The translations under genes and the position numbers were made by a program. The notes beneath the pieces are model-generated. The model searched no databases. It saw nothing but the letters and a program-made list of their open reading frames with translations, and was not told the origin of the DNA. 17,515 nt of DNA from Armatimonadia bacterium (GTDB lineage Bacteria > Armatimonadota > Zipacnadia > Zipacnadales > UBA11051): NCBI GenBank assembly GCA_039683575.1, contig JBDKRC010000352.1, positions 1-17,515 on the forward strand, in the 5' to 3' direction. Positions 7,367-12,088 of this stretch are shown in pieces (position 1 is the stretch's first letter; the number at the start of each line of letters is the position of its first letter).

Positions 7367-10300
7367 ATGTCTGAGCGTACTCGATATCAGGAAGCTGTGG
7401 TGGTCATGATGGCGCTTTTGGCGCTGGTGACGGTGCTGGTGGTGTGCATGTCCCCGCTGCGCGCGCAAGATCTGCGGGCGCTGGGGATGCAGGTTGTGGG
7501 GCCGCGGGAGGTGCTGGCCGACAGCGTGGCGGCGGTGCGGGTCATCGTGACCGACCACGCCGCGCGCAAGCCGGCGCAGGGGGCCCTGGTGTCGATCCGG
7601 CTCGCGAAGCCGGATAATAGTCTTTCCGAGCTCTTGCTCAACGCCCGCGCTGATGGGCGCGGGACCGTTGACATGAGCTTTGAGGTCCCGGCAGTGGCGC
7701 CGGGGGCGTACGAGTTTGTCATCCGCGCGCGATATGGCGGGGATACCGAGGAGACGCGGCAGGCGGTGCGGGTGACGGCTGGCAACCAGGTGTTGCTGAC
7801 GACCGATAAGCCGCTGTACAAGCCCACCCAGGTGGTGCATGTGCGGGCGTTGGCGCTGCGCAAGCCGAGCTTGAGGGCGCTGAAGGGCGAACAGTTGACC
7901 TTTGAGATCAGCGATCCGAAGGGCAACAAGGTCTTCAAGCAAAAGGCCCAGACGAACGACTTCGGCGTGGCCTTTACGGAGTTTCAGCTTGGTGACGAGA
8001 TCAATCTCGGCGACTATCGCGTGGTGTGCCTGCTCGGCGACGAGCGGGTTGAGAAGAACATCACGGTCAAGCGGTACGTGCTACCGAAGTTCCGGGTGAC
8101 TGTCACTCCCGACAAGCAGTACTACCTGCCGGGTGAGACGGCGCGGGGAACGGTGCAGGTGGACTACTTCTTCGGCAAGCCGGTGACGGACAGCAAGGTC
8201 AAGCTGACGCTGAAGACGTTTGACGTGGCTTTCAAAGAGATCGCGGTCCTGACCGGCAACACGGACAGCAAGGGGACGTGGAAGTTTGAGACGCGGCTGC
8301 CGAACGAGTTTGTGGGCCAGCCGCTTGAGCAGGGAAAGGCGTTCCTGCAGTTCGAGGCGGAGGTCACGGACCAGGCCGAGCATACCGAGCGGGCGGTCGT
8401 GTCATCGCGGGTAGCGGCGGCGCCGCTGGAGATCCATGCCGTACCGGAGAGCGGGACGCTGGTGCCGGGCGTCGAGAACATCGTGTATGTGATGGTCTCG
8501 CGCCCGACGGGCGAGCCGGTGAAGGCGCGGGTGCGGTACGAGTTCGCACAGGTGCAGGGGGTGACGGTGAAGGTACTGTCGGAGAAGGAACTCGTGACCG
8601 ATGAACTGGGTCTTGCGGAGCTGAGGGTAGTTCCGGAAGTGGCCGCGAACGCCGGGAATGCAATGGGCAAGCGCGCCGGGCGAGGGTGGGGCCCGCAGTT
8701 GGTGGACTTTGACATCGCGTCGGGCATTGAGCTTATCGTCAGCTTCAGCGCCACGGCAACCGACGGGACGAAGGCTGAGCAGCAGGCGAAGCTGCCGGTG
8801 GGCGGAGGCAGCGCGGACACGGCGCTGCTTCTGCGGACGGACAAGGTGCTGTCGCGGGTGGGTGACACCGTCGAGGCTGTGGCTTACACGGGGGCGCAGC
8901 GGGGCACGGTGTACTTCGATGTGGTCAAGGACCGGCAGACGATGCTCACGCTGGCGGCTGACATCGAGCAGGGGACGGCGAGGGTGCGGATTCCGCTGAC
9001 GCCAGAGCTTAGCGGAACGGTGTGGGTGTCGGCGTACCGGATTCAGCCCCATGGAGAGATTGTGCGCGCGACGCGGCCGGTGTATGTGAACCCAGCCAAT
9101 GACCTCAACATCGCAGTGCGGCCGGACAAGGACGTGTACCGCCCCGGACCGGATAACATCGCGAAGATCAACTTCGCTGTGACCGATCCGCAGGGGCGGC
9201 CAGTGGCGGCGGCGCTGGGTGTGAATGTGGTGGATGAGAGCCTGTTCGCCATTCAGGAGATGCAGCCGGGGCTTGAGAAGGTGTACTTCTATCTCGAAAA
9301 GGAACTGACGACGCCGCGGTACGAGATACATGGGTACGAGATGCCGAACCTGATCGGCGGGCCGGTGCGACGCGGCGAGGCCATACCGCTGGAACAGGAC
9401 GCCCTCAAGCAGGAGGCGGCGCGGGTGATGATGGCGTCGGTGAAGGCGCCGGAGACCGCGGTCTTCTCGCAGGACACGTATGCCGAGCGGCTGGAGCAGA
9501 TGCGGCAGAAGGGGCTGGAGCAACTGCGGCCGCAGGCGCAGAAGATACAGCAGGCGATCGAGAAGTACAACCAGACGCACCAGGGGCATATGCTCAAACC
9601 GAAGGACCTGCTGACGCCGGTGGTGCAGGCGGGGCTGCTGAAGGAGAAGGACCTGTTGGACCCGTGGGGGACGCAATTTGCGCTGGCGGCGGTGGACCCG
9701 CAGCAGGACGTGCTATGGAATGTCATTCTGTGGTCATGGGGCCCCGACAAAGAGAAGGGCACGGAGGATGACCTGTATGTGCTGAGCGGGTCGCCGTGGA
9801 CGGTCTACACGAGCCTGGACGAAGCAAGGGAGATGCGGTGGGACGGCCGCTTCCTCAAGGGCGGGGTTGTAATGGCGCTGCCAATGGCGGCGGCGGCGCC
9901 AGGGGTGGTGCGCGAGGCAGCGATGGACAAGGCCGTTGCGACGAATGCAGCGGCAGCGCCGGGAGCGGGCGAGAAGCCTGTACGGGTGCGGCAGTTCTTC
10001 CCCGAGACACTGCTGGTGGAGCCGGCGCTGATCACTGACGGCAATGGCAATGCGACGCTGAACGTGCCGATGGCAGACGCGATCACCTCGTGGCGGATCA
10101 CGGCGCTCGCCAACAGCATGTTGGGCGCGCTGGGCTCGACCACGGGTAACCTGCGCTGCTTCCAGGACTTCTTCATCGACATTGACCTGCCGGTGGCGCT
10201 GACCCAGGGCGACCGGGTCTCGGTGCCGGTGGCGGTTTACAATTACCTGCCAGGGCCGCAGAAGGTGCGGCTGGAACTGACGAAGGCCGACTGGTTCGAA

Positions 10301-12088
10301 CTGACCGGGCCGGATAAGCACGAGTTGGAGATCGGCGCGAACGACGTGGACGTGCGGTACTTCACGATTACCGCCAAGAAGATCGGGAGTGGCAAGCTGC
10401 TCGTGCATGGCTATGGCAGCAAGATGAGCGATGCCATCGAGCGGGTGGCCGAGGTGGAGCCGAACGGGAAGCTGTTTGAGGTGAGCGCGAGCGGGCGGCT
10501 GACCGGCAGTAAGACCGAGACGCTGAACATCCCCGCCGAAGCCATCGCAGACGCCAGCAACATCCTCGTGAAGGTCTATCCCGGCATCTTCTCGCAGGCC
10601 GTGGAAGGGCTGGACAGCATCCTGCGCATGCCGTCGGGGTGTTTTGAGCAGACTTCGTCCACCACCTACCCGAACGTGCTGGTGCTGGACTATATGAAGA
10701 CCATCGGGCGCATCTCGCCTGAGATCCAGATGAAGGCCGAGGGGTTCATCAACAACGGCTATCAGCGTCTCGTGACCTTCGAGGTGCAGGGCGGAGGGTT
10801 CTCGTGGTTCGGCGACGCGCCGGCGAACAAGGTGCTCACCGCCTTCGGGCTGATGGAGTTCCACGACATGGCGCGGGTACATGAGGTGGACCCGAACCTG
10901 ATCGCACGGACGCAGCAGTGGCTCCTGAGCCAGCAGGGAGCGGACGGGGCGTGGGAGGCGGACAAGGCGTACCTGCACCAGGAGGCGTGGGGGCGCATCC
11001 AGAACAGCAAGCTGCCGCCGACGGCCTACGTGGCCTGGGGCCTGACCTACAGCGCGTGCAAGGAGCCGGGCGTGGCGAAGGCCATTAGCTACCTGCGGGA
11101 GCATGCGGACGAGACCAAGGATGCGTACGTGCTGGCGATGGTCGCCAATGCGCTGGTGAATGCGGACCTGCCCACAGGGGCGCTCGACAAGAGCACCGAG
11201 GCGGTGCTGGACCGGCTGGTGGGGATGGCCAAGCGCAAGGACGGACAGATGTGGTGGGAGACGCAGATGACGGGTATTACCCACAGCAGCGGGCAAAGCT
11301 CCGACCTGGAGGCAACGGGGATGGCGGCACTGGCGCTGATCGCCGCGGGGCGCAACAGCGAGGCGACTGAGGTGCTCAACTATCTCATCGCCCAGAAGGA
11401 CCCGCAGGGGACGTGGTATTCGACGCAGGCGACAACGCTGGCGCTGCGGGCGCTGATGGCCAGCCAGAAGGCGAGCACGAGTCTGGTCAATGGCGAGGTC
11501 AGCGTGATGATCAACGGCCAGCAGGCGGCGGCGTTCGGGCTGACACCGGAGAATGCCGACGTGATGCGCCAGGTGGATGGGCGGAAGTTCATCAAGCCGG
11601 GCGCAAACGAGGTCACAGTGAAGTTCGAGGGCAAGGGCAGTACGCTCTACCAGGTGGTGGGCAAGTACTACCTGCCATGGGAGAAGCTGCGACCGGCTGC
11701 GCGCGAAGAGCTGGACATCAAGCTCGCCTATGACCGCACCACGCTGAACAAGGACGACATGGTGACAGCGGACGTGACGGTGAAGAACAACCTGCCGGGG
11801 ACCACGAGCATGATCATCGTGGACCTGGGCATTCCGCCGGGGTTTGAGGTGCAGAGTGAAGACTTTGCGAACCTCGTTGAGAAGGGGACGCTGCAGAAGT
11901 ACAGCCTGACCGGGCGCCAGATCATCTGCTATCTGGAGAAGCTGGACCCGCAGCAGACGGTGCAGTTCAGTTACCGGCTGCGGGCGAAGTTCCCGATCAA
12001 GGCGCAGACGCCCAAGAGCCGAGTGTATGAGTACTACAACCCGGACCGGCAAGCAGAAGCGCGGCCGGTGGACATGGTGGTGCAGTAG
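7367..12088 (+). CDS. Alpha-2-macroglobulin family / thioester-containing protein (MG domains, bait region, TED, receptor-binding-like C-terminus)
   Basis: 1573 aa with an N-terminal signal peptide. MG2 motif TTDKPLYKPTQVV; YVLPKFRV; VVDES; post-bait VRQFFPET and DAITSWRITA; thioester MPSGCFEQ (Cys codon 10640-10642); GTWYSTQAT; C-terminal SMIIVDLGIPPGF...RVYEYYNP. AGGAGG RBS at 7353-7358. Confidence 0.96.
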   Translation: MSERTRYQEAVVVMMALLALVTVLVVCMSPLRAQDLRALGMQVVGPREVLADSVAAVRVIVTDHAARKPAQGALVSIRLAKPDNSLSELLLNARADGRGTVDMSFEVPAVAPGAYEFVIRARYGGDTEETRQAVRVTAGNQVLLTTDKPLYKPTQVVHVRALALRKPSLRALKGEQLTFEISDPKGNKVFKQKAQTNDFGVAFTEFQLGDEINLGDYRVVCLLGDERVEKNITVKRYVLPKFRVTVTPDKQYYLPGETARGTVQVDYFFGKPVTDSKVKLTLKTFDVAFKEIAVLTGNTDSKGTWKFETRLPNEFVGQPLEQGKAFLQFEAEVTDQAEHTERAVVSSRVAAAPLEIHAVPESGTLVPGVENIVYVMVSRPTGEPVKARVRYEFAQVQGVTVKVLSEKELVTDELGLAELRVVPEVAANAGNAMGKRAGRGWGPQLVDFDIASGIELIVSFSATATDGTKAEQQAKLPVGGGSADTALLLRTDKVLSRVGDTVEAVAYTGAQRGTVYFDVVKDRQTMLTLAADIEQGTARVRIPLTPELSGTVWVSAYRIQPHGEIVRATRPVYVNPANDLNIAVRPDKDVYRPGPDNIAKINFAVTDPQGRPVAAALGVNVVDESLFAIQEMQPGLEKVYFYLEKELTTPRYEIHGYEMPNLIGGPVRRGEAIPLEQDALKQEAARVMMASVKAPETAVFSQDTYAERLEQMRQKGLEQLRPQAQKIQQAIEKYNQTHQGHMLKPKDLLTPVVQAGLLKEKDLLDPWGTQFALAAVDPQQDVLWNVILWSWGPDKEKGTEDDLYVLSGSPWTVYTSLDEAREMRWDGRFLKGGVVMALPMAAAAPGVVREAAMDKAVATNAAAAPGAGEKPVRVRQFFPETLLVEPALITDGNGNATLNVPMADAITSWRITALANSMLGALGSTTGNLRCFQDFFIDIDLPVALTQGDRVSVPVAVYNYLPGPQKVRLELTKADWFELTGPDKHELEIGANDVDVRYFTITAKKIGSGKLLVHGYGSKMSDAIERVAEVEPNGKLFEVSASGRLTGSKTETLNIPAEAIADASNILVKVYPGIFSQAVEGLDSILRMPSGCFEQTSSTTYPNVLVLDYMKTIGRISPEIQMKAEGFINNGYQRLVTFEVQGGGFSWFGDAPANKVLTAFGLMEFHDMARVHEVDPNLIARTQQWLLSQQGADGAWEADKAYLHQEAWGRIQNSKLPPTAYVAWGLTYSACKEPGVAKAISYLREHADETKDAYVLAMVANALVNADLPTGALDKSTEAVLDRLVGMAKRKDGQMWWETQMTGITHSSGQSSDLEATGMAALALIAAGRNSEATEVLNYLIAQKDPQGTWYSTQATTLALRALMASQKASTSLVNGEVSVMINGQQAAAFGLTPENADVMRQVDGRKFIKPGANEVTVKFEGKGSTLYQVVGKYYLPWEKLRPAAREELDIKLAYDRTTLNKDDMVTADVTVKNNLPGTTSMIIVDLGIPPGFEVQSEDFANLVEKGTLQKYSLTGRQIICYLEKLDPQQTVQFSYRLRAKFPIKAQTPKSRVYEYYNPDRQAEARPVDMVVQ

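Follow-up and report, generated by a model that had tools for sequence, protein, structure and literature searches.

The DNA analysed here is the 17,515-nucleotide stretch of contig JBDKRC010000352.1 (assembly GCA_039683575.1), referred to as the window, and it comes from an uncultured soil or water bacterium of the Armatimonadota. The window, which has a G+C content of 63.6%, carries an intact open reading frame (ORF, 7367..12088) for an alpha-macroglobulin, a thioester-containing protein of 1573 amino acids (aa), and this gene, above all the His-x-Glu pair in its thioester domain (TED), was the subject of our study. The parts of the gene and its neighbors are listed in Table 1. The Pfam domains occurred in the order MG2, MG3, A2M_BRD, A2M, TED_complement, and A2M_recep, which is the plan of the alpha-macroglobulin / complement superfamily. 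Eight Pfam families matched the protein at E<=0.01, neither the anaphylatoxin domain (ANATO) nor C345C among them, and Pfam gave no match for the CUB halves. The protein looks like one exported by a Sec-type signal, as judged by eye. Its N-terminus contains ..LVVCMS.., with Val at position -1 and by eye no canonical lipobox, and the N-termini of its homologues were variable yet similarly Sec-signal-like by eye, with a charged start, a hydrophobic core, and a small-residue site.

A sequence search of the whole protein against the PDB returned CD109 (E 1.1e-68), A2ML1 (5e-63), A2M (1.5e-62), and C3 (2.4e-35), and the best 60 of the 69 matches were all animal proteins, with no bacterial structure among them. 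The bacterial macroglobulins that have been characterized were more distant. E. coli YfhM (ECAM) shared 22% identity with our protein at a best BLASTP E of 9e-8, and its Pfam families were bMG1, bMG2, bMG3, bMG5, bMG6, bMG10, and a partial TED_complement, whereas none of these bMG families matched the 1573-aa protein. YfhM and Salmonella SaA2M resemble it in being bacterial, exported, and equipped with a CxEQ thioester, and they act as monomeric covalent traps (PMC7864068, PMC4498604). The N-terminus of YfhM is of the lipoprotein type (..LAGC), and its gene adjoins pbpC in the K-12 record, whereas the Armatimonadota gene had no conserved partner. Because neither a PbpC-type partner nor a conserved neighbor was found, the cell-wall-guard model of YfhM is not implied here. 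Judged by sequence, the macroglobulin follows the animal design (MG domains, bait-region domain, MG7, CUB-TED, MG8) and not that of YfhM.

The preliminary description of this DNA had pointed to an intact GCFEQ with Cys1092 and, 112 residues later, to a His-x-Glu segment likened to the catalytic segment of complement C3. Residues and spacing were exact (GCFEQ at residues 1091-1095, nt 10637-10651), as were the codons of His1204 and Glu1206 (10976-10984). A bare H-x-E is not significant, because it occurs three times in the protein (339, 562, and 1204) and the TED contains five histidines; the case for His1204 therefore rests on the homologous column and its conservation. When the TED was compared with all PDB sequences by HMMER, every one of the 44 matches was animal, comprising CD109, A2M, A2ML1, TEP1, C3, C4, cobra venom factor, and frog A2M. 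The whole-TED alignment placed YLHQEAWG opposite VIHSELQG of CD109 (E 7e-30), His on His and Glu on Glu, and placed His1204 opposite position 1088 of human A2M (LLNNAIKG, 1474-residue chain; E 1.9e-22), where the Asn that the description had given for A2M was indeed present. The alignment of a 101-aa query with C3d and C3dg spanned some 80 residues, broken by just one gap of a single residue, and set HQE on HQE (E 4e-4 to 4e-3), and a 45-aa query gave the identical register with C3d (E 0.26); the C3 string quoted in the description was the string seen in these C3d alignments. The counterparts of His1204 and Glu1206 in 1c3d numbering are His133 and Glu135. With C4-B, the spans matched by the 45-aa query were equal in length (query 4-34, chain 1102-1132). 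If that alignment is ungapped, His1204 falls at chain residue 1125, which is probably the isotypic histidine of C4B.

The register was read residue by residue from the printed alignments to CD109, A2M, and C3d, and the equivalence with A2ML1 follows through C3, A2M, and a published comparison (PMC7864068), in which A2M Asn1088 is the equivalent of the C3, C4B, and A2ML1 histidine. Human C3 His1126 and Glu1128 are critical to binding specificity, and C3 Pro1007 and Pro1020 are required for a stable thioester (PMC6983669). The matching prolines of our protein, P1089 and P1102, were invariant along with the G, C, F, E, and Q of the thioester site in 62 aligned sequences. For YfhM, an alignment that the description had also called for, the profile-to-sequence alignment (probability 96) had a gap at the eight residues around the histidine.

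With 61 homologues as input, AlphaFold2 predicted an all-helical TED, with a predicted local distance difference test score (pLDDT) of 91 and a predicted template modeling score (pTM) of 0.90. In Foldseek searches the best match of this model was CD109 (9fx3; E 1.8e-15, TMq 0.83), and it also matched A2ML1 (TMq 0.81), C4dg (1hzf; TM 0.81/0.79), and C3d (1c3d; TM 0.78/0.78), a fold like that of C3d. Across CD109, A2ML1, A2M, TEP1, C4dg, and C3d, the TM was about 0.8, which places the domain in the alpha/alpha-toroid fold. The possibility that the register is wrong, or that the gene is a decaying relic in which the histidine is irrelevant, appeared extremely improbable. The 45-aa alignment to C3d is not significant taken alone, and the loop bearing the histidine had a pLDDT below that of the rest of the model. 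However, three independent alignments concur (the full TED on CD109 and on A2M, and 80 residues on C3d), the reading frame is intact, relatives elsewhere in the phylum are open frames of 1500-1750 aa with no stops, and the His column was conserved in 120 of 121 sequences.

That conservation set consisted of the query and its 120 best homologues, ranging in TED identity from 98% down to 54%. GCFEQ was present in all 121, the histidine in all except one (Asn), and the glutamate in 112. The nearest named relative, at 98% identity, was a protein from an Armatimonadia metagenome-assembled genome, and public annotation called the homologues alpha-2-macroglobulin family or MG2 domain proteins and, once, GspG. 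Six homologues of about 1830 aa (P0086, P0096, P0102, P0104, P0107, and P0120), one of them named Candidatus Poribacteria, had an added DUF4159 (PF13709) in a precomputed Pfam list. The wider family was large. In a HMMER scan with the TED of 1.84 billion cluster representatives (clusters at 50% identity), 4953 matches passed E<=1e-3 and 1555 passed E<=1e-30. When each species was represented by one genome and searched by pattern, at least 519 confirmed relatives were among the 598 pattern matches listed. Confirmed relatives belonged to Armatimonadota, Chloroflexota, Hydrogenedentota, Acidobacteriota, Planctomycetota, Poribacteria, Zixibacteria, WOR-3, Moduliflexota, and others. Distribution within the Armatimonadota was patchy, with the gene in 29 of 81 sampled genomes at E<=1e-40, the present genome included; the only other genome of its family, 96% complete, did not yield the gene.

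Beyond the closest homologues, the His column varied while the GCFEQ motif did not. In 80 loci (L004-L083), the column held His in 41, Asn in 20, Ala in 8, Asp in 6, Arg in 4, and Gln in 1. All 80 loci keep GCFEQ, by construction, because the pattern by which they were chosen contained GCFE. Motif played no part in the choice of the 150 best cluster representatives. Of these, 149 had GCFEQ, the sole miss being a fragment without the region, and the His column of the 149 held His in 73, Ala in 23, Asn in 18, Asp in 7, and Arg in 6, with the rest scattered. A maximum-likelihood tree of 81 TEDs (the 80 loci and the query), computed with the loop columns left out by a quick search in which the branch was not starred, fell into two halves separated by a branch with a Shimodaira-Hasegawa-like approximate likelihood ratio test (SH-aLRT) value of 93. 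One half of 45 rows contained 41 His and 4 Ala and drew on Armatimonadota, Anaerolineae, Hydrogenedentota, WOR-3, Zixibacteria, and Poribacteria. The other half of 36 rows, mainly Acidobacteriota, Planctomycetota, and Moduliflexota, contained 20 Asn, 6 Asp, 4 Ala, 4 Arg, 1 Gln, and 1 His. Taken by clade, His was the residue of Armatimonadota, Anaerolineae, Hydrogenedentota, and WOR-3, Asn that of Acidobacteriota, Arg that of Planctomycetota, Asp that of Moduliflexota, and Ala that of Hebobacteria and others.

The residue two positions on was coupled to the histidine. Glu or Asp stood at +2 in 51 of the 73 representatives with His vs 6 of the 76 without it, and in 32 of 41 vs 0 of 39 loci. This co-variation, with the alignment of Glu1206 to C3d Glu135 and the CD109 Glu, is in line with the role given to the glutamate in the preliminary description. 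Conservation, tree split, and coupling lead us to read His-x-Glu as a trait selected at the level of clades. The family, so far as its sequences tell, shows the same kind of split as C3 and C4B vs A2M in animals.

Selection on the pair could also reflect structure. The His and Glu may be kept for packing, perhaps of the TED on MG8 in a way that lets the thioester form and keeps it shielded, with a thioester that is mainly amine-reactive like that of A2M or YfhM, although we regard this as quite unlikely. A Trp at +4 traveled with the histidine in 53 of the 73 representatives, and this coupling suggests a packed local motif. The column also tolerates Asn, Asp, Ala, and Arg in clades that keep GCFEQ. 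In A2M the position lies at the interface of the TED and the receptor-binding domain, the N1088H substitution disrupted the forming of the thioester, and the histidine is not the only factor that governs reactivity (PMC7864068). However, His raises hydroxyl reactivity in every case tested, namely C3, C4B, and A2ML1 (PMC7864068, PMC9156758), and the Glu or Asp coupled to it at +2 makes up the pair implicated in C3 specificity (PMC6983669).

The stretch of 255 residues between the bait-region domain and MG7 was predicted by AlphaFold2 (59 homologues) to consist of a folded module, a disordered stretch, and a conserved plug. The disordered part, 39 residues long (segment residues 203-241), had a pLDDT below 50 and was identical to the eight closest homologues of the alignment at only 9 of 38 to 14 of 39 positions, while the 14 residues directly after it were identical to the same eight at 11-14 of 14. 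Among 60 sequences, R875, F878, P879, E880, and T881 of the plug were invariant, and R873 was at least 90% conserved. An Arg730/Phe733 plug is strictly conserved in all human family members (PMC9156758). Since the stretch is disordered and hypervariable and is followed by the conserved R-x-x-F-P-E-T, it is probably the bait proper, and a disordered, fast-evolving bait followed by an Arg...Phe plug is the arrangement of a protease trap.

The folded module, an insert that separates the bait-region domain from the bait itself and is conserved across the family, resembled a pseudopilin. Pfam T2SSG (GspG) matched residues 718-802 with an E of 0.001 and 19.5 bits, under the 21-bit cut-off. When the equivalent part of 68 related loci was scanned, it matched 28 at E<=0.01, 17 of them above the cut-off. 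These counts come from the Pfam scan; a strict regular expression for the motif matched 33 of 69 full-length genes. The model had a pLDDT of 96-98 over residues 709-818, with a long helix followed by three strands, and the top ten PDB matches in Foldseek were all major pseudopilins of type II secretion systems (T2SS), weak but consistent, the best being 3g20_A (E 0.015, prob 0.99, TM 0.49 on target). Eight of its residues (D765, W767, G792, P793, D794, T799, D801, and D802) were at least 90% conserved in the 60 sequences. A full-text literature search found no description of a macroglobulin combined with a pseudopilin. An extra CarboxypepD_reg (transthyretin-like) domain was present in the bait-side stretch of 19 of these 68 genes, most of which came from Acidobacteriota in the half without His.

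We consider it probable that the protein traps proteases covalently once its bait is cut, by means of a thioester that His and Glu assist and that can react with hydroxyls. In the mechanism that we infer, thioester formation, the acyl-imidazole step, hydroxyl reactivity, location, and target included, a protease would cleave the disordered bait (residues 831-869), which would free the R-x-x-F-P-E-T plug and let the protein change shape. The Cys1092-Gln1095 thioester would then be exposed, and His1204, assisted by Glu1206, would attack it. As in C3, C4B, and A2ML1, the product of this attack would be an acyl-imidazole. The acyl group of Gln1095 could thereby pass to hydroxyls (Ser, Thr, Tyr, sugars, and water) as well as to amines. 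The acyl-imidazole mechanism has been described (PMC9156758).

The closest parallel in function is A2ML1, which has the same domain plan, likewise bears a thioester, and has its His1084 at the C3 column; it differs in being animal and glycosylated, in having GCGEQ instead of GCFEQ, and in lacking a pseudopilin-like insert. A2ML1 is a monomeric protease inhibitor and a bait-triggered covalent trap (PMC7864068, PMC9156758). Its H1084N variant lost reactivity with glycerol and kept that with glycine, and its histidine was required to conjugate and inhibit acetylated thermolysin and serves against proteases without amines; because monomeric inhibitors rely on covalent capture, broader reactivity would mean a broader protease range (PMC7864068). 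By analogy, the histidine would widen the range of proteases that our protein could tether. Human A2M shares the domain plan, bait, and thioester, and has Asn in place of the His and Ala in place of the Glu; it is a tetrameric cage, for which covalent capture is unnecessary (PMC7864068). CD109, described as a protease inhibitor (PMC12927315), was the top match in both sequence and fold. Its TED identity to ours was about 29%, and the two proteins have H-x-E in common (VIHSE vs YLHQE). CD109 is GPI (glycosylphosphatidylinositol)-anchored and furin-processed, whereas our protein appears to start with a plain signal peptide and carries a GspG-like insert.

The preliminary description had gone further, from the histidine to an opsonin or adhesin. 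Its first step, to a thioester that the histidine assists and that can react with hydroxyls, may reasonably be drawn from the sequence. The second does not follow, given that an inhibitor, A2ML1, shares the histidine and that the protein has the features of a trap. A complement-like role in which the His/Glu thioester esterifies surface sugars, leaving an opsonin-like mark or a covalent anchor instead of inhibiting an enzyme, seemed unlikely to us; the surface could belong to a competitor, a predator, or a host, or it could be the envelope or matrix of the producing cell. His-x-Glu is the same as in C3, the protein appears to be exported (signal judged by eye), there is no PbpC-type partner or conserved neighbor, and the pseudopilin-like module could mediate contacts with surfaces or filaments. 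For A2ML1 itself, 'complement-like membrane deposition' has been left open (PMC7864068). C3 and C4B share with our protein the thioester, His-x-Glu (HQE identical to C3), the two flanking prolines, and the TED fold. Unlike it, they have anaphylatoxin and C345C domains and a convertase site where the bacterial protein has a bait, and the whole-protein similarity to C3 was far lower than that to CD109 (2.4e-35 vs 1.1e-68). Neither domain of a C3/C4-type opsonin was found by Pfam at E<=0.01, and a bait region was present. A long, disordered, hypervariable bait suits many proteases better than a dedicated convertase site. The closest solved relatives (CD109, A2ML1, and A2M) are protease inhibitors, and the inhibitor A2ML1 uses the same His (PMC7864068). 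No linked receptor, convertase, or regulator genes were seen at 81 loci. Another bacterial precedent for covalent attachment is offered by the Gram-positive TED adhesins (SfbI / Cpa-type), which also have a Cys-Gln thioester; they are surface proteins whose thioester bonds covalently to the target (PMC13685950). None turned up in any search, although no test was aimed at that relation. We take their TEDs to be a domain family unrelated to the macroglobulin TED.

A trap is thus likelier than an opsonin or adhesin, because A2ML1 shares the histidine, the bait is disordered and hypervariable, and Pfam found no anaphylatoxin domain. By analogy with characterized relatives, covalent capture of an attacking protease is the most likely biological use, and the ordinary expectation that a macroglobulin guards the cell against proteases is unchanged. 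Several points weigh against the protease trap. The histidine alone is insufficient, as A2M N1088H mostly formed no thioester and gained little (PMC7864068). Inside the TED model, confidence was lowest in the loop that bears it, with a mean pLDDT of 81 over TED residues 121-130 and 68 over TED residues 131-140. No linked protease or other partner gene was found, the top neighbor cluster occurring at 7 of 81 loci. That the protein is monomeric is a guess, and so is its location in the cell. The pseudopilin-like module has no counterpart in characterized macroglobulins, and its role could alter the picture.

Histidine in the thioester domain switches the thioester from amine-only to hydroxyl-capable chemistry, which is textbook knowledge for complement. 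This switch was demonstrated for one human protease inhibitor, A2ML1, in 2020 (PMC7864068). Both the His mechanism and His-bearing protease inhibitors were thus already known. In the literature searched, mostly non-subscription, we found neither a bacterial macroglobulin with the catalytic His nor an animal-like bacterial family with the His split and a pseudopilin-like insert. The characterized bacterial macroglobulins, YfhM and SaA2M, are treated as amine-reactive, and YfhM is without the His loop by profile alignment. Here a widespread, uncharacterized bacterial family of animal-like macroglobulins has the full C3-type His-x-Glu in one clade and an A2M-like Asn in another, and the two clades therefore offer a natural, easily expressed pair for studying thioester specificity. 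The family also bears on the origin of animal thioester proteins, and the pseudopilin-like module next to the bait is a domain combination without a description in the full-text search.

Taken together, these observations allow a wider reading, which we put forward as a long shot. A very large branch of animal-type macroglobulins, spread over many bacterial phyla (no fewer than 519 species genomes, with 1555 clusters at 50% identity and E<=1e-30), would carry the switch that separates C3 and C4B from A2M in animals, with a 'complement-like' clade having His and Glu and another having Asn, Asp, Ala, or Arg. When the bait is cut by a foreign protease, the protein of the His clade would esterify the nearest hydroxyl-bearing surface or enzyme, and the pseudopilin-like module would hold or present the bait. 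The branch might be the stock of the animal CD109-like proteins, which, if true, would reverse the usual story of transfer from animal to bacterium.

Besides the macroglobulin gene, the window contained a transketolase fragment and genes for a 6-phosphogluconolactonase, an ATPase of T2SS or type IV pilus (T4P) type, a PEBP-family protein, and MscL, together with ORFs without a Pfam match. The neighbors weighed against a pairing with pbpC were the PEBP-family gene, two ORFs without a Pfam match, and mscL; pbpC was not among them. Neighbor clustering took in 572 ORFs, each 110 aa or longer, drawn from the window and from 80 loci, with flanks of about 3.7 kb upstream and 6.3 kb downstream. A conserved operon partner was rejected, as the commonest non-macroglobulin cluster was present at just 7 of the 81 loci, and a tie between the T2SS-type ATPase and the pseudopilin-like insert was dropped because the ATPase was no recurrent neighbor at the 81 loci.

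Table 1. Features of the macroglobulin gene, its neighbors in the window, and related loci with an extra domain (positions in nucleotides of the window).
Feature	Position	Strand	Basis or remark
Whole gene, alpha-macroglobulin / thioester-containing protein, 1573 aa	7367..12088	+	ORF listing and translation
Apparent N-terminal export signal, residues 1-33	7367..7465	+	Cleavage after L-R-A, judged by eye
MG2 (residues 142-221) and MG3 (236-303)	7790..8275	+	Pfam PF01835 4.6e-25; PF17791 5.8e-08
Bait-region domain A2M_BRD, residues 489-628	8831..9250	+	Pfam PF07703 9.5e-10
Pseudopilin (GspG)-like module, residues 705-818, D-P-W-G ... G-P-D ... T-x-D-D	9479..9820	+	Pfam T2SSG, AlphaFold2, Foldseek
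Probable bait proper, disordered, Ala/Pro/Gly-rich, residues 831-869	9857..9973	+	AlphaFold2 pLDDT <50, low identity
R-V-R-Q-F-F-P-E-T, Arg...Phe 'plug' after the bait, residues 873-881	9983..10009	+	Conservation in 60 sequences
A2M (MG7) domain, residues 884-971	10016..10279	+	Pfam PF00207 9.9e-19; genome search too
Thioester domain (TED), residues 1075-1364	10589..11458	+	Pfam PF07678 TED_complement 7e-50, model positions 12-310 of 312
Thioester site P1089-S-G-C1092-F-E-Q1095 ... P1102	10631..10672	+	Residue positions and invariance
His1204-Gln-Glu1206, column of the C3 acyl-imidazole His and its Glu	10976..10984	+	Alignments, conservation
C-terminal MG8 / receptor-binding-type domain A2M_recep, residues 1479-1564	11801..12058	+	Pfam PF07677 2.1e-16
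T2SSE-type secretion/pilus ATPase, MshEN domain, 626 aa	2267-4147	-	Pfam; 3 kb upstream of the macroglobulin gene
Long ORF, 423 aa	4837-6108	-	No Pfam family at E<=0.001
Long ORF, 333 aa	6110-7111	+	No Pfam family at E<=0.001
Long ORF, 362 aa	13652-14740	+	No Pfam family at E<=0.001
Long ORF, 804 aa	14892-17306	-	No Pfam family at E<=0.001
CarboxypepD_reg carriers among related loci	L034, L045, L047, L050, L052, L057-L062, L065, L067-L070, L073, L077, L081		540 to 200 residues before GCFEQ

The same genome (G000) carries a second gene of the macroglobulin family, of a different build with a bMG5 match, on another contig (C327; locus L084, 3..3380, minus strand). That contig stops five residues short of the His column, and the gene has an intact CAEQ at residue 1019 of the 1126 that the contig covers.

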